Assembly: GCA_030647125.1 (NCBI GenBank) | Contig: JAUSKC010000017.1 | Span: 12,664-76,663 of the forward strand | Length of the DNA stretch: 64,000 nucleotides | Direction of reading: 5' to 3' | Source: Nanobdellota archaeon | GTDB lineage: Archaea > Nanobdellota > Nanobdellia > Pacearchaeales > GW2011-AR1 | Shown here: positions 3,228-48,447 of the stretch, in pieces | Layout of the letters: each line of letters opens with the position of its first letter | Numbering within the stretch: position 1 is the first letter of the stretch | Position numbers and translations under genes: made by a program | Notes under the pieces: model-generated | What the model was told of the DNA's origin: nothing | Databases searched by the model: none | Seen by the model: the letters and a program-made list of their open reading frames with translations, nothing else

Positions 3228-3257
3228 TTCACACCTCCTTTTTGAATTATAATAATC

Positions 3258-27701: not shown

Positions 27702-28142
27702 ATGGAATGCCCATACTGTTCAAGTACAAGATTTAAAGTAACGAACAAACGCAACTCTGAAGAGGGAATAAGACGAAGAAGGGAGTGTTTAAAGTGCGGG
27801 AAAAGATTTACTACGCAAGAAAAAATAGAGAAAGATGATATTTTTGTAATAAAAAAGGATGGAAGAAGAGAGCAATTTTTGAGAGAGAAGTTGCAGAACG
27901 GAATTTATAGGGCGTTTGAAAAAAGGCCGGTAGCAAAAGACAAGATAGACAAAATAGTTCAAGAAATTGAGGAGCAAATAAGAAAAATGGGTAAAAAAGA
28001 GGTAAAAAGTTCTACGATAGGGGAGATGGCTATAAGAAAGATAAAGAAAATTGATAATATTGCATATATAAGATTTGCTTCGGTTTACAGAGACTTTCAA
28101 GATATTAAAGATTTTAAGGAAGAATTGGAGATATTCGCATGA
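27702..28142 (+). CDS. nrdR: transcriptional repressor NrdR (zinc ribbon + ATP-cone)
   Basis: MECPYCSSTRFKVTNKR...RRRRECLKCGKRFTTQE zinc ribbon followed by an ATP-cone (VIKKDGRREQF...YIRFASVYRDF). GAGGTG lies upstream of the ATG at 27702. The track start GTG at 27696 is an alternative. Confidence 0.85.
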   Translation: MECPYCSSTRFKVTNKRNSEEGIRRRRECLKCGKRFTTQEKIEKDDIFVIKKDGRREQFLREKLQNGIYRAFEKRPVAKDKIDKIVQEIEEQIRKMGKKEVKSSTIGEMAIRKIKKIDNIAYIRFASVYRDFQDIKDFKEELEIFA

Positions 28143-31006
28143 CTGAAACAATTTCGTTAATGATTGTAAAAAGAAATGGGGATGTAGTAGGATTTGAGTC
28201 AGAGAAAATAAAAAATGCTATAATGAAAGCTGTTCGCGCGACGGACAACAAAATAGAAGAGGAATTGATGGATAAACTTATTTTTGATATTCAGCAGGAA
28301 ATTGAAGCGCGCTTCATTGATTTTTATCCTAATGTTGAGAATGTGCAGGACATTGTTGAGAAAAACCTGGTAAAAAATGGATTGTATGAAATCTCAAAGG
28401 CCTATATTCTTTACAGAGAAAAAAGAAAACTCGAAAGAGAAAAAGAAAAAGTTGAGAATCAGAAAAAAGTCCAGCTTGGAAGATTAAAAGTAAAAAAATC
28501 TGATGGAACAGCAGTTCTCTTTGACCTTGGAAAGATAAAGGAAAGTATTTTGGCTGCAGCCAGAGGTTATGAAAAGGACATCTCGGCCGATTCGATTATA
28601 AAAGAACTTGTCAAAAATATTTACGACGGCATAACAACTGAAGATATTCAAAAGTCACTAATTTTAGCATCGGTGACATTTATAGAAAAAGACCCTGCTT
28701 ATAATTATGTTTCTGGGAGATTGTTTTTGCAAAAACTTTTCAAAGAGGCAACAGGTGAATCAATTCTAAAAGCCGGCAAAAGTGAGAATTACAAAAAAGC
28801 ATTTATTTATGGGATACAAAAAGGTGTGGAAGAAAATTTATTTGACAAGCGGCTTTTAAATTTTGATTTAATTAAATTGGGAAATGCCCTTAAGATCGAA
28901 AGAGATGAACTTTTGCAGTTTATGGGAATTCAAACATTATATGAAAGATATTTTGCTAAAGTTGGAGAAAAAAGAATAGAAATGCCACAAGGTTTTTGGA
29001 TGAGAGTTGCTATGGGATTGTCAATTAAAGAAAAAAACAAAGATGAAAAGGCAATTGAATTTTATGACTTGCTTTCTTCACTTAGATATGTTTCCTCAAC
29101 ACCGACGCTGTTTCATTCCGGGACACTTCATCCGCAATTAAGCTCATGTTACTTGAATACTGTAATGGATGATTTGCATCATATTTTTAAGGTCTATGGG
29201 GATAATGCGCAATTATCAAAATGGTCTGGAGGTATTGGAACTGATTGGACAAATGTGCGTGCAACTGGAGCAACTATAAAAACAAATGGAGTTTCAAGCC
29301 AAGGCACCATTCCTTTTTTAAAAATTGCAAATGATGTTACTGTTGCAATAAACCGAAGCGGAAAAAGAAGAGGCGCAACTTGCGTTTATCTTGAGACATG
29401 GCATCTTGATATTGAGGATTTTTTGGATTTAAAAAAGAACACTGGCGATGAAAGAAGGAGAACGCATGACATGAACACGGCAAATTGGATTCCTGATTTA
29501 TTTATGAAAAGAGTTTTAAACGATGAAGAATGGACTTTGTTCTCGCCGGAAGAAGTCCCTGAACTGCATCACTTATATGGAAGAAAATTTGAGAAAAAAT
29601 ATGAAGAGTATGAAGAGGCAGCACGAAACGGCAAAATAAAAAAACACAAAACAGTTTCGGCCTTGAAACTTTGGAAGAAAATGTTAAGCATGCTGTTTGA
29701 GACGGGGCATCCATGGATTACATTCAAAGACCCGTGCAATATTCGCTCGCCTCAAGATCATGTTGGAGTTATACATAATTCTAACTTATGCACTGAAATA
29801 ACTTTGAATACTTCTGAAAAAGAGACCGCTGTCTGCAATCTTGGTTCCATAAATTTTGGAAAACATATAATTAATAATCAATTGGACAAGGAATTAATTG
29901 CAAAAACAGTTAGAACTGCCGTCAGAATGCTTGACAATGTTATTGACATAAATTTCTATCCGACGATAGAAGCAGAAATGTCAAACTTGCAACACAGACC
30001 AATTGGTTTTGGGATAATGGGTTTCCAGGATGCACTTTACATGTTAGATATTGATTTTGGTTCTCCAGAAGCAGTAACTTTTGCTGACAAAAGCATGGAA
30101 TTGGTTTCTTATTATGCAATCCTTGCATCGTCTGAATTAGCAAAAGAAAGAGGAAAATACGAGAGTTATTCTGGTTCGAAATGGGATAAAGGAATTTTCC
30201 CACTAGATACATTAAATTTAGTTGAAGAAGAAAGAGGATTGAAGATAAATGTTTCACGAGACGAGAGTTTGGATTGGACGCCAGTAAGAATGCATGTTAA
30301 ACAATTCGGGATGAGAAATTCAAACGTTATGGCAATTGCGCCGACAGCGACGATATCCACAATTTCTGGATGTTATCCGTGCATCGAACCTATTTACAAA
30401 AACATCTATGTCAAGGCTAATATGAGTGGGGAATTTACAGTTGTCAATCCATACTTAATTGAGGATTTAAAGAAAAATGGGTTATGGAATCAGGAAATGC
30501 TTGAGCAATTGAAATATTACGACGGCAATGTAGGCCTGATTGCAGGAATTCCAGATGAACTTAAAAGAAAATACAAAGAAGTTTTTGATATAGATGCAAA
30601 ACATTTAATTGATATTACTGCAGCTAGAGGAAAATGGATTGACCAATCGCAAAGTTTCAACTTGTTCATAAAAGGAGTTTCAGGAACTAAGTTAAGCGAA
30701 ACATATTTGTATGCTTGGGAAAAAGGGTTGAAAACAACTTATTATTTGAGAAGTTTGGCAGCATCGCAAATTGAGAAGTCTACGCTGAATGCAGAAAAAT
30801 ACGGGTTCACGCAAAAAAGAGAATATAAAAATTTTGATGTGTCAGAAAAAATTCAGGAAGTTGAACGACTTAAAGAAATTACTACAAAACAAAGGGCTGC
30901 CGCTTCAAATTTTGATCTTGAAATCGGCAATGAAATGTCAGCTACTGAATTTACAAATGGCAAAATTTGTTCCTTGCTTGATCCGGACTGCGAAGCGTGT
31001 CAATAA
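28139..31006 (+). CDS. nrdA: class I ribonucleotide reductase large subunit
   Basis: N-terminal ATP-cone, the SSCYLN and NLCTEI active-site motifs, and a C-terminal redox Cys cluster CSLLDPDCEAC. The start overlaps the nrdR stop. Confidence 0.9.
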   Translation: MTETISLMIVKRNGDVVGFESEKIKNAIMKAVRATDNKIEEELMDKLIFDIQQEIEARFIDFYPNVENVQDIVEKNLVKNGLYEISKAYILYREKRKLEREKEKVENQKKVQLGRLKVKKSDGTAVLFDLGKIKESILAAARGYEKDISADSIIKELVKNIYDGITTEDIQKSLILASVTFIEKDPAYNYVSGRLFLQKLFKEATGESILKAGKSENYKKAFIYGIQKGVEENLFDKRLLNFDLIKLGNALKIERDELLQFMGIQTLYERYFAKVGEKRIEMPQGFWMRVAMGLSIKEKNKDEKAIEFYDLLSSLRYVSSTPTLFHSGTLHPQLSSCYLNTVMDDLHHIFKVYGDNAQLSKWSGGIGTDWTNVRATGATIKTNGVSSQGTIPFLKIANDVTVAINRSGKRRGATCVYLETWHLDIEDFLDLKKNTGDERRRTHDMNTANWIPDLFMKRVLNDEEWTLFSPEEVPELHHLYGRKFEKKYEEYEEAARNGKIKKHKTVSALKLWKKMLSMLFETGHPWITFKDPCNIRSPQDHVGVIHNSNLCTEITLNTSEKETAVCNLGSINFGKHIINNQLDKELIAKTVRTAVRMLDNVIDINFYPTIEAEMSNLQHRPIGFGIMGFQDALYMLDIDFGSPEAVTFADKSMELVSYYAILASSELAKERGKYESYSGSKWDKGIFPLDTLNLVEEERGLKINVSRDESLDWTPVRMHVKQFGMRNSNVMAIAPTATISTISGCYPCIEPIYKNIYVKANMSGEFTVVNPYLIEDLKKNGLWNQEMLEQLKYYDGNVGLIAGIPDELKRKYKEVFDIDAKHLIDITAARGKWIDQSQSFNLFIKGVSGTKLSETYLYAWEKGLKTTYYLRSLAASQIEKSTLNAEKYGFTQKREYKNFDVSEKIQEVERLKEITTKQRAAASNFDLEIGNEMSATEFTNGKICSLLDPDCEACQ

Positions 31007-31024
31007 ATAAAGAATAATATTAAA

Positions 31025-32215
31025 ATGGAAATTGAAAATGTAAAACGGCTTTTGGAAGTTAATCAATTGAAAATAGAAAAGATGACTTCCCAAATTATGG
31101 AACTTAATGATGAACTTTCAAATATAAAACTTTTAATGCTTAACTTAGAAAGACCGACGTTAGAAAATAAAGAAAACAAAAATGAATTTCAAGATAGAGA
31201 AGATGAAGATTATAGTAAAATAGGCATAATAAATAATTCAAAAACGGATCCGAATAAGATTTTGCCTATGAGATATTTGTGGGCGCGAGAACATTATAAA
31301 ACGGGCGTCGCAAACAATTGGGTTCCTGAAGAAATCCCCATGCAGGACGACGTTGAGCAATGGAAATCAGACAGGTTTTTGAACGAAACAGAAAGAAGAA
31401 TGATTATTTGGAATTTGGGATTTTTCTCTACTGCAGAATCTCTGACGGCAAACAATATTGTTTTGGCGGTTTATAATCATGTCACAAATCCTGAATGCAG
31501 ACAGTATTTGCTTAGACAAGCCTTTGAAGAGGCAATTCATACTGATACTTTCATTTATTGCTGTGATACTCTTGGTTTGAATCCTGATATGATATATAAT
31601 ATGTATAATACAATTCCTTCAATAAAAGAAAAAGATAATTTTGTAATTGAACTTACTAAGAGTGTCTTCGACCCTAATTTCTCTACGAAAGGAAAAGAAA
31701 ATGTAAGAAAATTTCTGCATGATTTAATAGGATATTATGTTATAATGGAAGGAATTTTCTTTTACGCAGGATTTGCCATGATGCTTGCTTTAAAGAGGCA
31801 GCATAAAATGATTGGAATAGGCGAGCAGTTTGAATTTATTATGAGGGATGAATCAATTCATTTGGCTTTTGGTTGCGATTTAATTAATACAATAAAAACG
31901 GAAAATCCTGAAATATGGAATGAAGAATTCAAAAATGAAGCGATTCAACTTATAAAAAAAGCAGTAGAACTTGAAAAGAAATATGCTTATGATGCATGTC
32001 CTCAAGGAATTTTAGGAATTAATGCTGAGCAATTTTGCAATTATGTTGAATACATTGCTGACAGGCGACTTGAAAGAATTGGTCTATTAAGAGTTTACAA
32101 TACAGAAAATCCTTTTCCTTGGATGTCACAATCAACAGATTTATCGAAGGAGAAAAACTTTTTTGAAACGCGCGTCACAGAATATCAGACCGCAGGAAAT
32201 TTAACTTGGGATTAA
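31025..32215 (+). CDS. nrdB: class I RNR small subunit, class Ic-like (Phe at the radical-Tyr position)
   Basis: YLWAREHYKTGVANNWVPEEIPM start region. Metal ligands are FFSTAES (Glu where class Ia has Asp) and EEAIHTDTF (E-x-x-H then Phe at H+4, codon 31550-31552). There is an N-terminal extension of about 80 aa, so the real start could be internal. Confidence 0.8.
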   Translation: MEIENVKRLLEVNQLKIEKMTSQIMELNDELSNIKLLMLNLERPTLENKENKNEFQDREDEDYSKIGIINNSKTDPNKILPMRYLWAREHYKTGVANNWVPEEIPMQDDVEQWKSDRFLNETERRMIIWNLGFFSTAESLTANNIVLAVYNHVTNPECRQYLLRQAFEEAIHTDTFIYCCDTLGLNPDMIYNMYNTIPSIKEKDNFVIELTKSVFDPNFSTKGKENVRKFLHDLIGYYVIMEGIFFYAGFAMMLALKRQHKMIGIGEQFEFIMRDESIHLAFGCDLINTIKTENPEIWNEEFKNEAIQLIKKAVELEKKYAYDACPQGILGINAEQFCNYVEYIADRRLERIGLLRVYNTENPFPWMSQSTDLSKEKNFFETRVTEYQTAGNLTWD

Positions 32216-32337: not shown

Positions 32338-35300
32338 ATGATAACAAAAGTAAGGAAACGTGATGGGAATGTTGTTCCGTTCGACAAAGAAAAAGTAACG
32401 GAAGCAATTTGGAAAGCTGCAAAAGCCGTTGGCGGACATGATAAAGAAATGGCAAAACACATTTCTGATTTAGTTGTTAAGGACTTAAATGAAAAATACG
32501 GAGACAATGCAATCCCTAGTGTGGAGAATGTGCAAGACATTGTTGAAAAAACTTTAATTGAAGATGGACGCGCAAAAACAGCCAAGGCATACATTCTTTA
32601 TAGAAAAAGTCATGAAGAACTAAGAGAAGTTAAGGGATTATTCGACACGATTGAAGTTGTCGATGATTATTTGGGATTGAATGACTGGATGATTAAGGAG
32701 AATTCAAATATGGGTTTTTCGCTTCAAGGGCTAAATAATTATATTGCGACTAAGATAATTACAAATTACTGGAATAGGCGAGTTTATCCTGAAGCAATAA
32801 GGGCCGCACACGAGAATGCGGAGATTCATATTCATGATTTAGGAACTTTGGGTGCGTATTGCGTCGGATGGGATTTGAAGGATTTGTTAATGACAGGATT
32901 TACTGGAGTTGCAGGAAAGGTTTCGTCAAGACCACCAAAACATTTTAGAACCGCATTAGGGCAGATGGTTAATTTCTTTTATACTTTGCAAGGCGAGACA
33001 GCTGGCGCGCAAGCATTTTCAAATTTTGATAGTTTATTAGCACCTTTTGTAAGATACGACGAATTAAATTACAAAGAAATCAAACAAGCAATGCAAGAAT
33101 TTTTGTTTAACCTTGCTGTTCCGACTCGCGTCGGATTTCAGTGCATGTCTGAAGATACACAAATTTTAACTCCAAATGGATGGAAGAAATATAACGAACT
33201 TAAAGAGGGAGAGATAATAAAAACATTTAACATTAAAGAAAAAGTTATAGAAGACAAACCCATAAAACGATTATTTGTAAGAGAATATAGTGGTGTTATG
33301 TATAACCTAAAAAATAGAATTCAAAACCAATTAATTTCTCCAGGACATAGGGTTGTAAGGAAAAAATTCCAGTCAGATGAGTATATTCTTGAAGAAATAG
33401 AAAAAGTGGAAAAAATGAAATCGCCATTTATAATTCCAATTGCTGCAAAAAATTCTTGTGAAGATATTAATTTATCAGATGAGCAAATAAAATTAATGGC
33501 TTGGATTATTGCTGAAGGCACAATAGAAAATTACACTTCACACAGGCATTCAGGAAGAGTTACAATATATCAATCTGCAATAAAAAACCCATCTAAATAT
33601 CAAGAGATAACTTCTTTACTGCAAGGTTTCAATTTAAATTATTCTGAAAATGATTCTACACCTGCTTTAGGAAGTTCAGTAAAAATGATGAGAATGAATG
33701 CTGAATCTTCCAGATTTGTGCATGCTTTGTTTGAGATGAAGAGAAATGTAAATTTTATTCCAGAGAAATTATTAAATATGAGTTCACGACAATCAAGATT
33801 ATTTTTGGAAACTTACCTTAAAGCAGATGGATTTGAAGGAGCTAAGATTGCCACAACAAATAAAGAAATTTTGCACGGACTGCAACAAATTGTCGTCAAT
33901 GCAGAATATGGTTTTACTGTTTTAAAAAGAGAACCGACTATCGGAACAAAACCAATTTATGTATTAAGACTAATTAAGCACAAGGAGACATATATTCAAG
34001 ATATAAAAAAAGTAGATTATAATGGCATTATTTGGTGCCCTAATACAGATAATGAGACAGTAATAGCCAAGAGAAAGGGAAAGGTCTTCATAACTGGAAA
34101 TACACCTTTTACAAATATAACAATGGATTTGAAAGTTCCGTCTTATATGAAAGAAGAACAAGTCATTATAGGAGGTCAGCCAATGAAAGAAACGTACAAA
34201 GAATTCCAAAAAGAAATGGACATGATTAACAAGGCCTTTGCAGAGTGCATGCTCGAAGGCGACTCACAAGGAAGGGTCTTCACTTTTCCTATACCTACTT
34301 ATAATATCACAAAGGACTTTGACTGGGATAATGAAAATTATAATTTAATATGGGAAATGACTGCAAAATACGGAATTCCTTATTTTAGCAATTTCATAAA
34401 TTCTGACATGAATCCAGAAGATGCGAGAAGTATGTGCTGCCGTCTGCGTTTAGACCAGACAGAATTAAGAAAAAGAGGAGGGGGACTTTTTGGAGCAAAT
34501 CCACAAACTGGCAGTGTTGGGGTTGTGACGATTAACATGCCACGGCTTGGATTTACATGCGTTACTGAAGAAGAATTTTTCTCAAAATTAAACAATTTAA
34601 TGGAGCTTGCAAAAGAAAGTTTGGAAATTAAGAGAAAAACACTAGAACGATATACTGAAATGGGACTTTATCCTTATTCTAAATTTTATTTGAGAAGTGT
34701 CTATCAAAGATTTGGACAATACTGGAAGAATCATTTCTCAACTATAGGATTGTTGGGAATGAATGAATGCATTGTCAACTTTATGCCTGACGAAAATATA
34801 ACAACAGAAAGAGGAAGAAAATTCGCATTGAAGGTCTTGCATTTCATGAGATCTAAATTAGAAGAATACCAAGTTGAGACAGAAAATATTTACAATCTTG
34901 AAGCGACTCCTGGTGAGGGAACGAGCTACAGATTTGCGCGAGAGGACAAAAAAAGATTTGGTAGAATTATTGTTGCAAATGAAAAAGTTGTAAAAGAAGG
35001 TAAGGCAAAACCCTACTACACAAATTCAACCCATATTCCAGTTAATTTTACCGATGATCTTTTTGAAGCGCTTGACTTGCAAGATGAGTTGCAAGTCCAA
35101 TACACTGGCGGAACGGTTCTTCATAGTTTCATAGGAGAGAAAATAAATAAAGATGGGGTAAAAATTCTTGTTAGAAAAATTGCTGAGAATTATCACTTGC
35201 CTTATTTTACTATAACCCCTACATTTTCAGTTTGCCCAATTCATGGGTATCTTGCTGGAGAGCATGAGTATTGCCCTCGGTGCGATGAAGAACACGGAAT

Positions 35301-35343
35301 AAGCAACGAAACGGGTTTGCTGATTAAACAAAAAGATAAATAA
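32338..35343 (+). CDS. nrdD: class III (anaerobic) ribonucleoside-triphosphate reductase, intein-containing, ending before the glycyl-radical loop
   Basis: ATP-cone, the AEIHIHDL motif, GFQ|intein|TPFTNIT, and a C-terminal VCPIHGY...YCPRC zinc motif. The ORF stops at TAA 35341-35343. Confidence 0.9.
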   Translation: MITKVRKRDGNVVPFDKEKVTEAIWKAAKAVGGHDKEMAKHISDLVVKDLNEKYGDNAIPSVENVQDIVEKTLIEDGRAKTAKAYILYRKSHEELREVKGLFDTIEVVDDYLGLNDWMIKENSNMGFSLQGLNNYIATKIITNYWNRRVYPEAIRAAHENAEIHIHDLGTLGAYCVGWDLKDLLMTGFTGVAGKVSSRPPKHFRTALGQMVNFFYTLQGETAGAQAFSNFDSLLAPFVRYDELNYKEIKQAMQEFLFNLAVPTRVGFQCMSEDTQILTPNGWKKYNELKEGEIIKTFNIKEKVIEDKPIKRLFVREYSGVMYNLKNRIQNQLISPGHRVVRKKFQSDEYILEEIEKVEKMKSPFIIPIAAKNSCEDINLSDEQIKLMAWIIAEGTIENYTSHRHSGRVTIYQSAIKNPSKYQEITSLLQGFNLNYSENDSTPALGSSVKMMRMNAESSRFVHALFEMKRNVNFIPEKLLNMSSRQSRLFLETYLKADGFEGAKIATTNKEILHGLQQIVVNAEYGFTVLKREPTIGTKPIYVLRLIKHKETYIQDIKKVDYNGIIWCPNTDNETVIAKRKGKVFITGNTPFTNITMDLKVPSYMKEEQVIIGGQPMKETYKEFQKEMDMINKAFAECMLEGDSQGRVFTFPIPTYNITKDFDWDNENYNLIWEMTAKYGIPYFSNFINSDMNPEDARSMCCRLRLDQTELRKRGGGLFGANPQTGSVGVVTINMPRLGFTCVTEEEFFSKLNNLMELAKESLEIKRKTLERYTEMGLYPYSKFYLRSVYQRFGQYWKNHFSTIGLLGMNECIVNFMPDENITTERGRKFALKVLHFMRSKLEEYQVETENIYNLEATPGEGTSYRFAREDKKRFGRIIVANEKVVKEGKAKPYYTNSTHIPVNFTDDLFEALDLQDELQVQYTGGTVLHSFIGEKINKDGVKILVRKIAENYHLPYFTITPTFSVCPIHGYLAGEHEYCPRCDEEHGISNETGLLIKQKDK
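33142..34101 (+). mobile_element. intein (320 aa) with LAGLIDADG homing-endonuclease domain inside nrdD
   Basis: It starts with Cys (CMSEDTQILTPNGW, block A) and has an SPGH block B-like motif. The LAGLIDADG motifs are LMAWIIAEGT and LFLETYLKADGF. It ends ...KVFITGN followed by Thr+1, and the flanks rejoin as GFQ-TPFTNIT. Confidence 0.85.
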
Positions 35344-35355
35344 AAGGGAGGAAAA

Positions 35356-35511
35356 ATGGAACGAACAAAATGCGAGGTATATTCGAGAGTTGTTGGCTAT
35401 ATAAGGCCGGTACAGCAATGGAATGAAGGGAAGCAGGCAGAATGGGCTGATAGAAAAACTTTTGTTATCGACGGAAAATCAAAAGAACAAATTATTGAAT
35501 GTGTGGCTTAA
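35356..35511 (+). CDS. stand-alone NrdD C-terminal glycyl-radical segment (51 aa), in frame with nrdD, 12 nt after its stop
   Basis: Own translation: MERTKCEVYSRVVGYIRPVQQWNEGKQAEWADRKTFVIDGKSKEQIIECVA*. It carries the RVxGY glycyl-radical motif. GGGAGG lies 4 nt upstream of the ATG. Confidence 0.7.
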   Translation: MERTKCEVYSRVVGYIRPVQQWNEGKQAEWADRKTFVIDGKSKEQIIECVA

Positions 35512-35786
35512 AGGCCCCTATCTCTCGCTGCATATAATATCTCTTCTGTGATAGTAGCTCCTTTGCCGTTATTTATATACTTACCGAAACCATATTTAAC
35601 AAATACAGTCGCTGCAGAATGGGCATTTCTTGAGGCCACTTCTGATAAATCTTCGCTTAAAGAATATTCTAAATTCACTCTTTTGCCAACATGAACAATT
35701 TTAATAGGTGTTCCAAAAAGGTCAACAACTTTTCCAGTTTTTGAATCATACCAAAGCATTTCAAGATTACGTGTCATAAAATTCAA
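35508..35786 (-). CDS. hypothetical protein
   Basis: 92-aa ORF convergent with nrdD. No motif recognised. Confidence 0.4.
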   Translation of the reverse strand: MNFMTRNLEMLWYDSKTGKVVDLFGTPIKIVHVGKRVNLEYSLSEDLSEVASRNAHSAATVFVKYGFGKYINNGKGATITEEILYAARDRGL

Positions 35787-35871
35787 TCCTAGAACTTATT
35801 AAAAAGATTGTGGTTCTTAACAAGCATATTAATTAAGTGAGATTTTTAAACTTGCCAGACCTTTATTTAGA

Positions 35872-36606
35872 ATGAAAAAACCATATGTAAAAAAATACGG
35901 CGAAGTGGCTGGTTTTTCTGTATGGATTATCGATGGAGAATATATCCGGGAAAATATAGATGAAGAATTCACAAATTTCGGACAGCATTTCAGATTCAGG
36001 TTTGTTCCAAAAAATGAGTTCTGGATTGATAAAACACGAAGAGGTGGAGAAGAACAATTTTACATTGATCATATGATAGCGGAGAACCGCATGATGGCTG
36101 AAGGCAAGGATTATTATTACGCTCTTAAAATGGCTGACAAAATAGAAAAAAGAGAACGCTCTACAGTTCGGCTTATAAAAAATTTAAAGAAATCACACAA
36201 AGAAAATGTAATAAAAAGAATTCATAAAAAACTTCTTAAAAAATACAGCAATAAGATAAATGTGTGGATTGTAAATGGGGACCTCGTACGTTCAATGTTT
36301 TTTATAGATTTTACCGAAGGCGGCCATGATATGGTATACAGTTTTATTCCAAAAAACGAGATATGGTTGGACGACGATCTGTCTGAAAAAGAAATGAAAT
36401 TTATCTTACTACATGAAATGCACGAAAGAAATTTGATGGCGCACGGATGGCCTTATGATTTAAAGTCACCAATTCGAGTTAAAAATAACAAGCCCGGCAA
36501 GATAACAAAATCCGCTCACAGGTCAGCAAGTGAAATTGAACATTTTGCAAGAGTTCATCCTGGAACAGTTGATAAATTCTTAAGAAAAGAAATGAAGAAA
36601 GAGTAA
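35872..36606 (+). CDS. internally duplicated protein with HxxxE / HEMHE motif (possible metal-dependent hydrolase), uncharacterised
   Basis: There are two repeats of roughly 110 aa:
- VWIIDGEYIR...FGQH...FVPKNEFWID...FYIDHMIAENRMM
- VWIVNGDLVR...GGHD...FIPKNEIWLD...FILLHEMHERNLM. Confidence 0.5.
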   Translation: MKKPYVKKYGEVAGFSVWIIDGEYIRENIDEEFTNFGQHFRFRFVPKNEFWIDKTRRGGEEQFYIDHMIAENRMMAEGKDYYYALKMADKIEKRERSTVRLIKNLKKSHKENVIKRIHKKLLKKYSNKINVWIVNGDLVRSMFFIDFTEGGHDMVYSFIPKNEIWLDDDLSEKEMKFILLHEMHERNLMAHGWPYDLKSPIRVKNNKPGKITKSAHRSASEIEHFARVHPGTVDKFLRKEMKKE

Positions 36607-36642: not shown

Positions 36643-37347
36643 ATGATAAAAGGGCTGCAGAAATTAACTTTGATTGATTATCCTGGAAAATTGGCGTGCA
36701 CGATCTTTCTTTATGGATGCAATTTCAGATGTGGGTTTTGCCACAATCCTGAGCTAGTTATTTCACCAACAGAAGAAAAATATTCTGAAGAAGAAATTTT
36801 AAAATTTTTGGAAAAAAGAAAAGCACAACTTAATGGAGTTTGTTTTACTGGAGGAGAACCGTTATTGAGTTTGAAGAAAGAGTTTGTAAAGAAAGTAAAA
36901 GAACTTGGTTATGCAATTAAAATTGACACCAACGGAAGCAATCCTGAAAAACTTAAAGAATTAATTAATGAAAATTTAATTGATTATATTGCTATGGATC
37001 TTAAGTCGTCCCCTGAAAAATACGTTGAAGTTGTGAACGCGCAAGTTTCTCTAGAAAAACTTGAAGAAACAATAAAGATTATGGTTTCCTACGGCGGCGA
37101 GTATGAATTCAGAACGACAATTTTGAAAAGGTATCATTCGGAGGAGGAATTAGAAAAAATGTTTAAATGGATCTTAGGATTAACATATGGAGTTAAACCA
37201 AAAAGATATTTTTTGCAAGGTTTTGTCAATAAAGGGAAATTGCTGGACAAGAGTTTTAAAAGCGAACCAGATGTTTATGAGGATTATTTAGGGGGATTAA
37301 AAAAAGTTGCGTATAATTATTTTGAAGAAGTTGGAGTTAGGGTTTGA
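36643..37347 (+). CDS. nrdG: anaerobic RNR activating protein (radical SAM)
   Basis: YPGKLACTIFLYGCNFRCGFCHNPELV carries the CxxxCxxC cluster motif in NrdG-type context, and also GVCFTGGEPLL. Confidence 0.85.
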   Translation: MIKGLQKLTLIDYPGKLACTIFLYGCNFRCGFCHNPELVISPTEEKYSEEEILKFLEKRKAQLNGVCFTGGEPLLSLKKEFVKKVKELGYAIKIDTNGSNPEKLKELINENLIDYIAMDLKSSPEKYVEVVNAQVSLEKLEETIKIMVSYGGEYEFRTTILKRYHSEEELEKMFKWILGLTYGVKPKRYFLQGFVNKGKLLDKSFKSEPDVYEDYLGGLKKVAYNYFEEVGVRV

Positions 37348-44943: not shown

Positions 44944-47900
44944 ATGTCATTAAAATCAAGACCAGTAAAGAATAAAATTGGAGCAATAAGATTCAGCTTA
45001 GTTAATCCTGAACAAATTAAAAAGTTATCAGTTGCAAAGATTGTGACGCCAGAACTTTATGATATAGACGGGTATCCTGTCGACGGAGGATTAATGGATT
45101 TGAGGATGGGTGTTGTTGATCCTGGATTGAGATGTCGAACAGATGGAGCAGTTATAAAAGAATGTCCTGGATATCCTGGAAGCATTGACTTGGCAAGATC
45201 AGTAATACATTTGAAATATGTTCCGCTAATTGAAATGGGTTTGAGATGTTTCTGCCATGATTGTGGAAAATTAATGTTAAGTGAAAAAGACCTTGCTAAA
45301 TTCAGCCCCGCAAACAGAGCCAAAAAAGCAAAGGACTCAAAGAAATGTCCTTACTGCACCGCAAACCAAGAAAAAATCAAATTAGACAAACCAACAAGTT
45401 TCTATATAGGCAAAAAAAGAATTTTCCCTACGGAAATAAGAGAAATGCTTGTTAAAATTCCTGACGAGGATCTGAGAAAAATAGGAGTAAACCCTGAATC
45501 ATCAAGGCCCGAATGGTCTGTTTTAACGACGTTGTTGGTTCCTGCACCTACAATAAGACCATCAATTATTCTTGAAACAGGAGAAAGAAGTGAAGATGAT
45601 ATAACACATAAATTATCAGATATTATACGGGCTAATCAACGACTTTGGGAAAATTTGAATGCAGGAGCTCCTGAAGTTATAATTGAAGATTTATGGGACT
45701 TGCTTCAGTATCACATTACAACATTCTTTGACAATTCGGTTGCTCGTGTTCCTCCAGCACGTCACAGAAGCGGACAGCCATTAAAAACAATCACCGAAAG
45801 AATAAAGGGTAAAGAAGGAAGAATTAGAAAGAACTTGGCAGGTAAAAGAGTAAATTACTCTGCACGAACAGTTGTTTCACCAGATCCAAGAATTGAAATT
45901 AATGAAGTTGGTGTTCCTTATGAAATTGCAAAGATTGTTACCGTCGCTGAAGCGGTGACTGATTTAAACATTCACAAACTGAAAGAACTGGTTAATAAAG
46001 GAGAAGAATATCCCGGAGCAAATTATATTATAAGACCTGATGGAAAAAGAAAGAAAATAACCAGTGAATTAAAAGAAGAAATAATCAATGAACTTGTTAC
46101 TGGATATAAAGTTGAAAGACATTTGCAAGATGGGGACATAGTTTTATTCAATCGTCACCCTTCGCTGCACAAAGGAAGTTTAATGGCGCACTACGTAAAA
46201 GTTCTTCCTTCCAGAACTTTTAGATTGCATCCTGCAGTAACATTCCCTTACAACGCGGACTTCGACGGGGATGAAATGAATATTCACTCCCCACAGACGG
46301 AAGAAGCGCGCGCTGAAGCAAAGATTTTATTGGATGTAAAGAAAAATTTAATTTCCCCTAAGAACAATTCAAATTTAATCGGAACAAAAGCTGATTCTAT
46401 CACAGGAAATTATTTGCTTGGATTAAACGAGCTTGATAAGGCCTATGCTAATCAATTATTTTTCAAATCTGGAATTGACCTTAAAGTTTCCAAAAAAAGT
46501 ATTTCAGGATTGGAGATTTTCTCACACATAATTCCAAAAGGAACTAATTTTGAAAATGATTCTGTAAAGATCAAAGACGGGAAAATCATCTCCGGGCATA
46601 TTGACGGAAGCACATTTGGAGAAGAAGATGGAGAGTTGGTTAAAGAATTAGACAAAGCATTTGGAAGAACACAGACACTTGAGACATTAAAAAATATCTT
46701 TACTTTAGGTACAAATTACTTAACTGATAAAGGAATTACAATTTCTGTTGAAGATTTGGATTTGGATGAAAGTATTATTGAAAAAGGAAAGGAAATAATT
46801 GCACGCGCTGAGAAAAAAGTTGAAGAGTTAATTGCAAGTTATCACGACGGCACTTTAGAAATTATCCCAGGAAAAACATTTGAAGAAACAAGAGAATTGA
46901 AAATTCTTCAGACATTGAATGAAGTAAGAACAAAAATTGGAGAAGTTGTAAAGAAAGAATTCCCTGAAGATAATCCTGTTAGTAACATGATAAAATCGGG
47001 AGGGGGCGGAAATATCTTAAATATTACACAGATGGCTTCGTGCGTCGGGCAACAAGCATTTGCCGGCGGAAGAGTTGATATTGGTTATGTTGACAGAACA
47101 CTTTCATTTTTTAACAAAGGAGATTTATCCCCTCGTGCAAGAGGATTCATTCACAGTCCTTTCATAAAGGGTCTGCGTCCCGATGAATTTTTCTTCCAGG
47201 CAATTACAGGAAGAGATTCACTTATGGATACAGCGTTGAGAACTCCAAAGTCAGGATATCTTTACAGAAGATTGGCAAATGCGCTGCAGGATATAAGGGT
47301 AGAATACGATGGAACGGTAAGAGACAGTAATAATAATATAATTCAATTTATATATGGAGATGATGGAAAAGACGTTTCAAGGTTACATTTGAAAGAAAGC
47401 AAAGTTGATGCAGGCGAGGCAGTTGGAATTGTAACTGCGCAATCGTTCGGAGAATCATCGACGCAAATGGTCCTTAATACATTCCACATGGCAGGAGTTG
47501 CAGAAATGCAGGTTACTACAGGCCTTCCAAGAATTATAGAAATCTTTGATGCTCGTAAAAAACCTTCATCGCCAAAAATGGAAATTTACCTAGATAAGGA
47601 TTCAAACAATGAAAAAGATGCAAGAACCATCGCTGAAAAAATAAAAGAAGTAAAGCTTAAGGAAATTGCGTCGCATGTCAATTTGGACTTTGGCAATAAG
47701 ATTATTGAAATTGTTCTTGATAAAGAAGGAATGAGAAGAACACACACTAATTTGAAAAAAGTCGCAGAAAAATTAAAAGATCTTGGATACAAAGTCAACG
47801 AAAGAAGCGAGTCCATTGCTATTAACGCAAAAGATTCAACATTCAAGGAGATTTACAAAGTAAAGGAAAAACTTAAGGAAACAATTATTTCCGGACTAAA

Positions 47901-48447
47901 AGGAATCGAACAAATTTTAATTGTCAAGAGAGACAAGGACTTTGTAATTATAACTTTAGGAACTAATTTGAAAAAGATAATTGAGCTTAAAGAAGTCAAC
48001 ATTGAAAGGACAATTACAAATGATTTATATGAACTGGCAGAAGTTTTCGGAATTGAAGCCGCGCGACAATTGATAATAAATGAAATTGATCATACCTTAA
48101 GAAGTCAGGGTTTAGATATTGACATGAGACATTTGAAATTAATTGCAGACACTATGACAACTGCAGGCCTTGTTAAGGGAGTTACAAGAATGGGGATCAT
48201 TGCGCAGAAAGCATCGATACTTGCCAGAGCAACTTTTGAGACGCCAGTAAAACAATTCGTCAACGCCACCATAAAAGGTAACAGGGACTACTTAACAAGC
48301 GTCGTGGAGAATATTATACTAAATCAACCAATTCCCGTCGGAACAGGACTTCCAGGATTAGCAGTTCAAGTTGTTGGTTCTCTAGCAAAGAAAGATTCCG
48401 AAAAGAAAAAAGCTGATTCAAAGATTGTTGAGCAAGTTAATAAATAG
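44944..48447 (+). CDS. rpoA: DNA-directed RNA polymerase subunit A, with A' and A'' parts in one ORF
   Basis: 1167-aa ORF with these elements in one frame:
- NADFDGDEMN active site.
- Bridge helix (GRDSLMDTALRTPKSGYLYRRL).
- About 17 residues after YGDDG, the trigger-loop region that normally opens A'' (GEAVGIVTAQSFGESSTQMVLNTFHMAGV). Confidence 0.9.
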   Translation: MSLKSRPVKNKIGAIRFSLVNPEQIKKLSVAKIVTPELYDIDGYPVDGGLMDLRMGVVDPGLRCRTDGAVIKECPGYPGSIDLARSVIHLKYVPLIEMGLRCFCHDCGKLMLSEKDLAKFSPANRAKKAKDSKKCPYCTANQEKIKLDKPTSFYIGKKRIFPTEIREMLVKIPDEDLRKIGVNPESSRPEWSVLTTLLVPAPTIRPSIILETGERSEDDITHKLSDIIRANQRLWENLNAGAPEVIIEDLWDLLQYHITTFFDNSVARVPPARHRSGQPLKTITERIKGKEGRIRKNLAGKRVNYSARTVVSPDPRIEINEVGVPYEIAKIVTVAEAVTDLNIHKLKELVNKGEEYPGANYIIRPDGKRKKITSELKEEIINELVTGYKVERHLQDGDIVLFNRHPSLHKGSLMAHYVKVLPSRTFRLHPAVTFPYNADFDGDEMNIHSPQTEEARAEAKILLDVKKNLISPKNNSNLIGTKADSITGNYLLGLNELDKAYANQLFFKSGIDLKVSKKSISGLEIFSHIIPKGTNFENDSVKIKDGKIISGHIDGSTFGEEDGELVKELDKAFGRTQTLETLKNIFTLGTNYLTDKGITISVEDLDLDESIIEKGKEIIARAEKKVEELIASYHDGTLEIIPGKTFEETRELKILQTLNEVRTKIGEVVKKEFPEDNPVSNMIKSGGGGNILNITQMASCVGQQAFAGGRVDIGYVDRTLSFFNKGDLSPRARGFIHSPFIKGLRPDEFFFQAITGRDSLMDTALRTPKSGYLYRRLANALQDIRVEYDGTVRDSNNNIIQFIYGDDGKDVSRLHLKESKVDAGEAVGIVTAQSFGESSTQMVLNTFHMAGVAEMQVTTGLPRIIEIFDARKKPSSPKMEIYLDKDSNNEKDARTIAEKIKEVKLKEIASHVNLDFGNKIIEIVLDKEGMRRTHTNLKKVAEKLKDLGYKVNERSESIAINAKDSTFKEIYKVKEKLKETIISGLKGIEQILIVKRDKDFVIITLGTNLKKIIELKEVNIERTITNDLYELAEVFGIEAARQLIINEIDHTLRSQGLDIDMRHLKLIADTMTTAGLVKGVTRMGIIAQKASILARATFETPVKQFVNATIKGNRDYLTSVVENIILNQPIPVGTGLPGLAVQVVGSLAKKDSEKKKADSKIVEQVNK

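Follow-up and report, generated by a model that had tools for sequence, protein, structure and literature searches.

Within a stretch of 64,000 nt from a Nanobdellota archaeon (GenBank assembly GCA_030647125.1, contig JAUSKC010000017.1, positions 12,664-76,663 of the forward strand; the whole of this stretch is referred to as the window), the gene nrdD for class III ribonucleotide reductase (RNR) is divided by a stop codon into two open reading frames (ORFs), the second of which encodes the glycyl-radical loop on its own. The best-supported reading of this arrangement, and what would be new here, is a class III RNR in two subunits with a separately translated glycyl-radical peptide. Comparison with related loci argues with high confidence that both ORFs are translated separately and are functional, and it is likely that the radical loop, made on its own, docks in trans onto the large subunit to give an active assembly. 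The elements of the junction are as follows.

32338..35343, plus strand: large piece of nrdD, 1001 codons including an intein and 681 aa once spliced, with ATP-cone, alpha/beta barrel, finger loop and zinc ribbon, lacking the glycyl-radical loop.
35341..35343, plus strand: TAA stop of the large piece, an ordinary stop codon that ends 39 of the 60 ORFs in the window.
35346..35351, plus strand: Shine-Dalgarno (SD) sequence GGGAGG, 4 nt before the ATG and predicted to be unpaired.
35356..35511, plus strand: small piece of nrdD, 51 aa, with the glycyl-radical loop RVVGY (Gly14, codon 35395-35397) and a C-terminal tail.

The TAA at 35341-35343 falls 19 residues past the zinc motif VCPIHGYLAGEHEYCPRC, and four codons (AAG GGA GGA AAA, 12 nt) lie between it and the ATG at 35356. 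The small ORF shares the frame of the large ORF and begins MERTKCEVYSRVVGYIRPVQQWNEGKQAEW, the encoded start also being given as MERTKCEVYSRVVGYIRPVQQWNEGKQAEWADRKTF. An initial annotation of the window had described a 1001-codon nrdD ending at this stop, after the zinc motif and with no glycyl loop, followed four codons later in the same frame by the loop at 35356-35511 with its own ATG and a GGGAGG 4 nt upstream, all of which is borne out by the sequence and by profile searches. The large ORF matches the Pfam family NRDD (PF13597) at 8.5e-174, reaching only position 531 of 562 of the profile, and the remaining positions, 531-562, are matched by the small ORF (39.4 bits against a cut-off of 26.2). 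The NCBIfam models TIGR02487 and NF006126 are divided between the two ORFs at the same place. With 1015.9 bits for NF006126 (cut-off 548), the large ORF has the NRDD barrel of an NrdD, and an RVxGY loop on the same polypeptide as that barrel is absent from it. NRDD profiles are the only matches of the small ORF in Pfam and NCBIfam, the Gly_radical family of pyruvate formate-lyase (PFL) type, PF01228, not being matched. SD-like motifs precede 13 of the 60 ORF starts in the window, and that of the small ORF is the sole example among them with all five positions of GGAGG. The initial annotation had compared its spacing with that of a GGAGGTG at 3231-3237; the 4 nt to the ATG hold, but the comparison sequence is on the minus strand and reads CACCTCC at 3232-3238.

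Beyond the missing loop, the large piece carries further features relevant to its function.

33142..34101, plus strand: intein, residues 269-588 (320 residues), of the form C...GN / T with LAGLIDADG-like motifs, inserted at GFQ/TPFTN.
34429..34452, plus strand: finger-loop motif SMCCRLRL, residues 698-705, of the double-cysteine MCCR type and site of the catalytic thiyl radical.
35233..35283, plus strand: zinc ribbon CPIH-x9-CPRC, residues 966-982, predicted to be of the Cys-His-Cys-Cys type and complete inside the large piece.
35284..35340, plus strand: variable tail of the large piece, DEEHGISNETGLLIKQKDK, the homologous tails being 13-75 aa long and poorly conserved.

The ATP-cone occupies residues 4-94 of the large ORF. 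The boundaries of the intein are exact from alignment with the intein-free homologues P0121, P0123 and P0129; its final two residues are GN rather than the usual HN, and the N-terminal splicing model gives a match below threshold (20.9 bits against a cut-off of 24.5). Relatives have none, one or two inteins in nrdD, with large ORFs ranging from 681 to approximately 1680 aa (L081, 1656; L085, 1366; L014, 1679). Finger loops of MCCR and MGCR classes have been described (PMC9669993), and the MCCR motif is invariant among the aligned homologues (alignments A3 and A4). [quoted passage not shown] As the ribbon is complete within the large piece, the cut separates the barrel and zinc ribbon from the glycyl loop and tail.

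The point of division is one that appears able to accommodate such a break. In single-chain NrdD the glycyl-radical domain is mobile, its movement being largely that of a rigid body (PMC11226230), and, given this mobility and the location of the zinc ribbon between barrel and glycyl loop, the cut falls in a natural linker. According to the initial annotation, canonical NrdDs have only a few residues between CPRC and EVYSR; this is not always so, as the CPxC-to-EVYSR linker of fused relatives ranges from 4 to approximately 20 residues, and the variation in length argues that it tolerates change. The rigid-body movement of the domain fits a piece that could associate non-covalently. A sequence search of solved structures returned only distant NrdDs (8P23, 4COI and 4U3E), which place the cut after the zinc ribbon and leave the extra linker misaligned.

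The predicted two-piece arrangement is kept in hundreds of related genomes. Amongst the 120 closest homologues of the C-terminal half of the large subunit (74-85% identity), 117 stop 13-75 residues past CPxC with no glycyl loop, and only three are fused. Searching by word index with the small ORF gave 508 matches, the best 120 of which are all stand-alone proteins of 39-81 aa with a methionine 2-10 residues ahead of (R)TKCEVYSRVVGY. When 1.84 billion cluster representatives were searched exhaustively with a profile, 4816 matched at E<=1e-3, of which 2104 reached E<=1e-10; the best 150 of the 4816 are all 45-166 aa in length, and nearly all begin with a methionine a few residues before (R)TKCEVYSR. 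Residues invariant in the small family (C6, E7, S10, R11, V13, G14, R17, P18, Q21, W22, N23, G25, K26, E29, D32 and R33) take in the entire glycyl loop together with the segment after it, a pattern that fused relatives share in this region. In a set of 80 species genomes, 51 loci have a fused nrdD, 28 have a stand-alone glycyl-loop ORF and one is ended by a contig edge; the motif scan behind these counts takes in the RVMGY and RSVGY variants, by which L029 and L051 are not counted as split and L013 is picked up. The split is found in Nanoarchaeota, Woesearchaeota, Pacearchaeota, Micrarchaeota, Saccharibacteria, Dojkabacteria, Falkowbacteria and other Patescibacteria. A rough neighbour-joining tree, built on the 180 residues ahead of the zinc ribbon and indicative only, places split forms in coherent clades and has the fused L001 nested inside the split clade of DPANN archaea.

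The geometry of these loci bears upon whether the stop codon is read through, an option that the initial annotation had raised. Under programmed TAA readthrough, or other recoding such as bypassing, the product would be a single-chain NrdD with a 26-residue linker and the ATG would be irrelevant. The two ORFs of the window do lie in one frame only 12 nt apart, and fused relatives with linkers of approximately 20 residues exist (L001 and P0134). The nearest relative, P0001 (88% identity to the small ORF, on 19 contigs from several groundwater samples), nonetheless has a 22-nt gap and the other ORF in a different frame, with AGGAGG, 4 nt and ATG all kept. AGGAGG stands at the same 4-nt spacing before the small-ORF ATG in L081-L084, and in L085, the relative next in line, a gap of 14 nt separates the ORFs, which are again out of frame. 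As these closest relatives (L081-L085) are out of frame, the shared frame in the window is incidental. Across split loci more broadly, frame offsets of 0, 1 and 2 are all present, each of the three stop codons occurs, and stop and start lie from -29 to +220 nt apart; only 4 of approximately 23 adjacent split loci are in frame, which is below the one-third expected by chance. Where the ORFs overlap, an AGGAGG and the start of the small ORF lie inside the large ORF, the start being TTG in Thermotogae (L049 and L057) and GTG in Bipolaricaulota (L030 and L034). The extreme case is L019 (165-4807), which has, in order, a large nrdD, an unrelated 488-aa ORF, the small glycyl-loop ORF and nrdG, so that the pieces are 1.5 kb apart; here the small ORF has AGGAGGTG upstream and a GTG start, and is located just before nrdG. 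Alignment of related nrdD loci, the check put forward with the initial annotation, finds the start codon kept across the split loci, and likewise the SD in lineages that use one: a matching SD is present in the loci of DPANN, Thermotogae and Bipolaricaulota, but often none in those of the candidate phyla radiation (CPR).

Signals that might promote readthrough are likewise lacking. The TAA is the commonplace stop noted above, and its frequency in the window also led us to reject reassignment of TAA. A scan of 34900-36000 against Rfam found no element, giving only one chance match below threshold. Folding of the RNA from 35330 to 35430 leaves the stop, SD and ATG region unpaired, with no pairing predicted within approximately 35 nt downstream of the stop; a modest hairpin that begins approximately 37 nt after it (z = -2.8) was considered as a readthrough signal and judged to be too far downstream. 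With frames, overlaps and gaps differing amongst relatives, and a whole gene intervening in L019, readthrough as a conserved mechanism is very unlikely.

Selection upon the two pieces speaks to a further explanation in the initial annotation, namely a recent nonsense mutation or an assembly error; with such a mutation, or an error of sequencing or assembly, nrdD would be a pseudogene or would in reality be intact. That the division consists of a single stop in an A-rich stretch, and that the organism also has a class I RNR, are in keeping with this. Against it, the 117 homologues split at the same place come from many independent assemblies, and the start codon is retained across split loci, with the SD present in the closest relatives. 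The spacer of L081 differs from that of the window by a 16-nt indel, and yet both ORFs are kept. Between the window and L081, the small ORF has a non-synonymous substitution rate (dN) of 0.060 and a synonymous rate (dS) of 1.08, for a dN/dS of 0.056, and the last 250 codons of the large subunit have a dN/dS of 0.04, with 239 of the 250 residues identical. At a dS of ~0.6-1.1, ratios of ~0.05 in both pieces argue that each is maintained as coding sequence, and an error or recent nonsense mutation is accordingly hardly credible. On comparative sequence data, therefore, what is observed is neither an error nor a pseudogene nor a site of readthrough. The two-piece class III RNR with an autonomous glycyl-radical peptide, the remaining proposal of the initial annotation, is strongly supported by the same comparison: by the prevalence of the split, the stand-alone family, the retained starts and purifying selection.

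It could also be envisaged that, once each piece has been made, a split intein or a ligase, for example, links the two covalently. A classical intein is indeed present in this gene, relatives have up to two, and split inteins are reported from nanoarchaeal and metagenomic genes (PMC2677866). No intein-like blocks flank the junction, however, and NRDD is the sole Pfam match of the small ORF. In addition, the tail of the large piece is short, variable and of low complexity, and no more than 2-10 residues of the small piece precede the conserved loop. We therefore regard covalent joining as exceedingly improbable.

A two-subunit class III RNR, with the loop supplied as a separate peptide, would operate in the following manner. 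The intein would be spliced out of the large gene product to leave a 681-aa catalytic subunit without a glycyl loop, and the 51-aa subunit would be translated separately from its own SD and ATG. Given the 12-nt spacing, the small gene is probably co-transcribed and translationally coupled with the large gene. The peptide would bind non-covalently where the C-terminal loop sits in single-chain NrdD, a docking suggested by homology, and in doing so would put Gly14 beside the finger-loop cysteine. NrdG would take a hydrogen atom from Gly14, either on the free peptide or on a peptide flipped out of the complex, and catalysis would thereafter proceed as in an ordinary NrdD. The catalytic equipment of such a two-piece system is intact, with the MCCR loop, the zinc ribbon and nrdG all present. 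Since a loop is missing from the large subunit itself, the enzyme would depend on the peptide as an obligate subunit and not as a spare part. Oxygen cleaves glycyl-radical proteins at the glycine, and a speculative benefit of the division is that, after such damage, only the 51-aa peptide would have to be replaced and not the large, intein-containing subunit.

Several points weigh against this interpretation. The split NrdD is known from its sequence, from which we infer assembly, activation and activity. AlphaFold2 modelling of the spliced large subunit and the peptide, concatenated and with 20 close homologues, gave a mean predicted local distance difference test (pLDDT) score of 60, with residues 670-732 at the C-terminus below 50, a confidence too low for the model to inform on docking. 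With the ORFs of the window in frame, low-level readthrough of the TAA may yield some fused product. A class I RNR is encoded directly upstream (28139-32215), so NrdD is not obviously essential, and nrdG is not contiguous with the small ORF, as an antisense gene and an unassigned gene lie between them.

A different view of the peptide is that it serves mainly as an exchangeable or free radical module, stored or shared, and not as a fixed stoichiometric subunit, or that the large piece has some other role. The location of certain small ORFs away from nrdD, in L059 amongst genes for Fe-S assembly and in L031 as an orphan, is in line with this, as is the occurrence of full-length NrdD together with an extra glycyl-loop mini-protein in a handful of loci (below). 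In the window and most other loci, by contrast, the small ORF is directly behind a truncated nrdD, and no other glycyl-radical enzyme is seen near it. The loop is, moreover, nearly identical to that of fused relatives, which implies the same binding site and weakens this explanation further; overall it is unlikely. The two displaced examples can be described as follows.

L059, 617-796: glycyl-loop ORF away from nrdD, between iscU-like and nfu/iscS-like genes on a 2.4-kb contig.
L031, 5689-6111: orphan glycyl-loop ORF of zinc-ribbon type, ~110-140 aa, in a Thermodesulfobacteriota genome.

The mini-proteins constitute a second family, and their presence beside truncated or full-length nrdD genes lends further support to a loop supplied in trans. 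In Moranbacteria and Parcubacteria, an ORF of 81-88 aa comes after a full-length nrdD that itself has a loop, and nrdG comes next; this additional ORF has its own CxxC...CxxC zinc ribbon and a second, nearly identical glycyl loop. The loci concerned, and those in which a mini-protein instead lies behind an nrdD that ends right after the zinc ribbon, are given below.

Beside full-length nrdD: L016, 6172-6432; L060, 6232-6486; L074, 6225-6479; L075, 6216-6461; L092, 4001-4267.
Behind nrdD ending right after the zinc ribbon: L023, 3441-6126; L086, 1758-4261; L088, 1828-4261; L090, 1868-4327.

Close relatives (L070 and L076) are without the extra ORF found behind full-length nrdD. In the nrdD of L023 the loop can still be recognised in degenerate form (STVYLKVVMAD). 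The L060 mini-protein has 202 database matches, the best 120 of which are all 67-144 aa in length. These arrangements suggest a second route to a two-piece enzyme, in which the radical domain would be duplicated and the resident loop then lost, whilst the mini-proteins beside full-length nrdD look, by analogy, like a GrcA-like spare part for class III RNR. It is possible, although we hold it rather less probable than not, that class III RNRs in general have their own autonomous glycyl-radical proteins in two forms, both exchangeable, activated by NrdG off the enzyme and replaced after oxygen damage. The first form would be the obligate peptide of ~40-55 aa, widespread in DPANN and CPR and also found in Thermotogae and Bipolaricaulota; the second would be the zinc-ribbon and glycyl-loop mini-protein of 80-100 aa, which can adjoin full-length NrdD as a spare part akin to GrcA.

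A number of variations upon the two subunits were observed. One or two cysteines stand at the end of many small subunits and of some fused NrdDs (...C, CGC, CDC, ACC; ECVA in the window; alignment A1), recalling the C-terminal redox-shuttle cysteines that RNRs of classes I and II have, and a thioredoxin gene is found near the operon in L085. One subfamily of small subunits (L019, L030, L034, L049 and L057; P0270, P0308, P0313, P0330, P0368 and P0373) has a conserved N-terminal extension of ~29 residues, (E)NGDL.LEDGT(V/I)IP, before the glycyl loop, and many of its members (the L-loci and P0308) have Ala or Thr for the otherwise invariant cysteine. This cysteine (KCEVYSR) was considered as a fourth zinc ligand supplied by the small peptide and rejected: the large piece already has a Cys-His-Cys-Cys set like that of T. 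maritima, and several split lineages have Ala or Thr at the position. In a subset of split large subunits (P0126, P0128, P0130, P0137-P0139, P0146 and others), the tail, otherwise variable, has the motif ANRAQ(V/A)(I/M)DA(V/I) after the zinc ribbon. L082 (37-4978) represents one population variant of the nearest relative; upstream of its small ORF, two ORFs are called in place of a single nrdD of 1656 aa, the first being of 689 aa with no Pfam match and the second a 945-aa NRDD protein with inteins.

With regard to the genomic setting, the window is AT-rich (34% GC) and belongs to an archaeal chromosome, encoding subunits B and A of RNA polymerase as well as EF-2, and its closest database relatives are labelled Nanoarchaeota or Pacearchaeota (DPANN). 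Megablast of the nrdD-nrdG region against phage genomes gave no match. The genes surrounding the two pieces of nrdD are listed here.

28139-31006: class I RNR gene nrdA, directly upstream of nrdD.
31025-32215: class I RNR gene nrdB, directly upstream of nrdD.
35508..35786, minus strand: antisense ORF of 92 aa and unassigned function, converging on the small piece with a 4-nt overlap at the stop; 81% identity to its L081 counterpart.
35872..36606, plus strand: ORF of 244 aa, located between the small piece and nrdG and containing the HExxH-like motif HEMHE; no Pfam match.
36643..37347, plus strand: nrdG, radical-SAM activase, intact; TIGR02495 (NrdG2) at 7.7e-60, with Pfam Radical_SAM and Fer4_12.

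The intact nrdG downstream, which the initial annotation had cited as a sign that the system is in use, was thus recovered. The 92-aa antisense ORF has no Pfam or NCBIfam match and is probably a neighbour, not part of the nrdD system; a minus-strand ORF is called at a similar position in L085. The HEMHE ORF is 94% identical to its counterpart in L081, compared with 88% for the small nrdD ORF. Genes for dUTPase and dCTP deaminase lie downstream. Archaea usually split the largest subunit of RNA polymerase into A' and A''; in the window (44944-48447) it is a single ORF of 1167 aa covering Rpb1 domains 1-5.

To our knowledge, every characterised glycyl-radical enzyme has its radical glycine on the catalytic polypeptide, with GrcA/YfiD as the only known free-standing loop. 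GrcA is homologous to the C-terminus of PFL, is approximately 127 aa in length, coexists with full-length PFL and repairs it after oxygen damage. Together with T4 Y06I, it resembles the peptide described here in being a small, stand-alone glycyl-loop protein that acts in trans with a large barrel subunit and an activase. The peptide of the window differs in that it is of NrdD type, has 51 aa and would be obligate, its partner having no loop of its own. The likeness to GrcA/YfiD drawn in the initial annotation consequently holds as a concept, but not in the sense of a spare part; closer analogues are the 80-100-aa zinc-ribbon and glycyl-loop ORFs beside full-length nrdD (L016, L060, L074, L075 and L092). 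According to a 2026 review, autonomous glycyl-radical proteins are known only for formate lyases (PMC13450708). The initial annotation knew of no account of such a peptide for NrdD, and in full-text searches of the literature neither an nrdD divided at the glycyl loop nor the mini-protein family turned up; not every journal is covered, so that a prior mention is possible.

The split RNR genes known so far fall into two kinds, those that introns, inteins or homing endonucleases interrupt and those of the class II NrdJa/NrdJb type. The latter is found in Pseudomonas aeruginosa (PMC4520616) and in Thermus phage phiYS40, where nrdJa and nrdJb have a 12-nt gap (PMC3653736). It is alike in that an RNR catalytic subunit is encoded as two consecutive ORFs that must combine, but it belongs to another RNR class and has another cut site, with no radical-bearing residue parted from the barrel. 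Some phage genes, broken up by group I introns, inteins or homing endonucleases (PMC3653736), are similar in that nrdD is annotated in pieces; there, however, the break is due to a mobile element, which is spliced out, or has an unclear cause, whereas the junction in the window has a stop, an SD and a start with no intervening element, and the intein is elsewhere in the gene. Class I RNR also makes and stores its radical on a subunit apart from the catalytic barrel, although NrdB is a ferritin-like metalloprotein with long-range radical transfer, whilst here the separate piece is the enzyme's own C-terminal loop. The single-chain MCCR-type NrdD of T. maritima (PDB 4COI and 4U3E) has an ATP-cone, barrel, MCCR loop, Cys-His-Cys-Cys ribbon and RVxGY loop in the same order, with nrdG nearby; the difference is that in the window the polypeptide stops past the zinc ribbon, the glycyl loop being a 51-aa gene product in its own right.

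In the database matches obtained here, the pieces of these genes are named as an ordinary reductase or as 'hypothetical protein', with no label of a split gene, so that gene inventories could miscount them. If the two-subunit reading is correct, a peptide of ~6 kDa can deliver in trans a radical loop that is buried in the enzyme, which would provide a minimal natural substrate for studying how the activase reaches its glycine, as well as a way to test whether oxygen damage to an RNR is repairable. Should the peptide be an exchangeable module, anaerobic RNR would be repairable in organisms at oxic-anoxic boundaries. The arrangement also bears on RNR evolution, as it would make the radical domain a modular one, in analogy with the separate radical subunit of class I. 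The two-piece form appears to be the usual class III RNR in large parts of the DPANN and CPR radiations.

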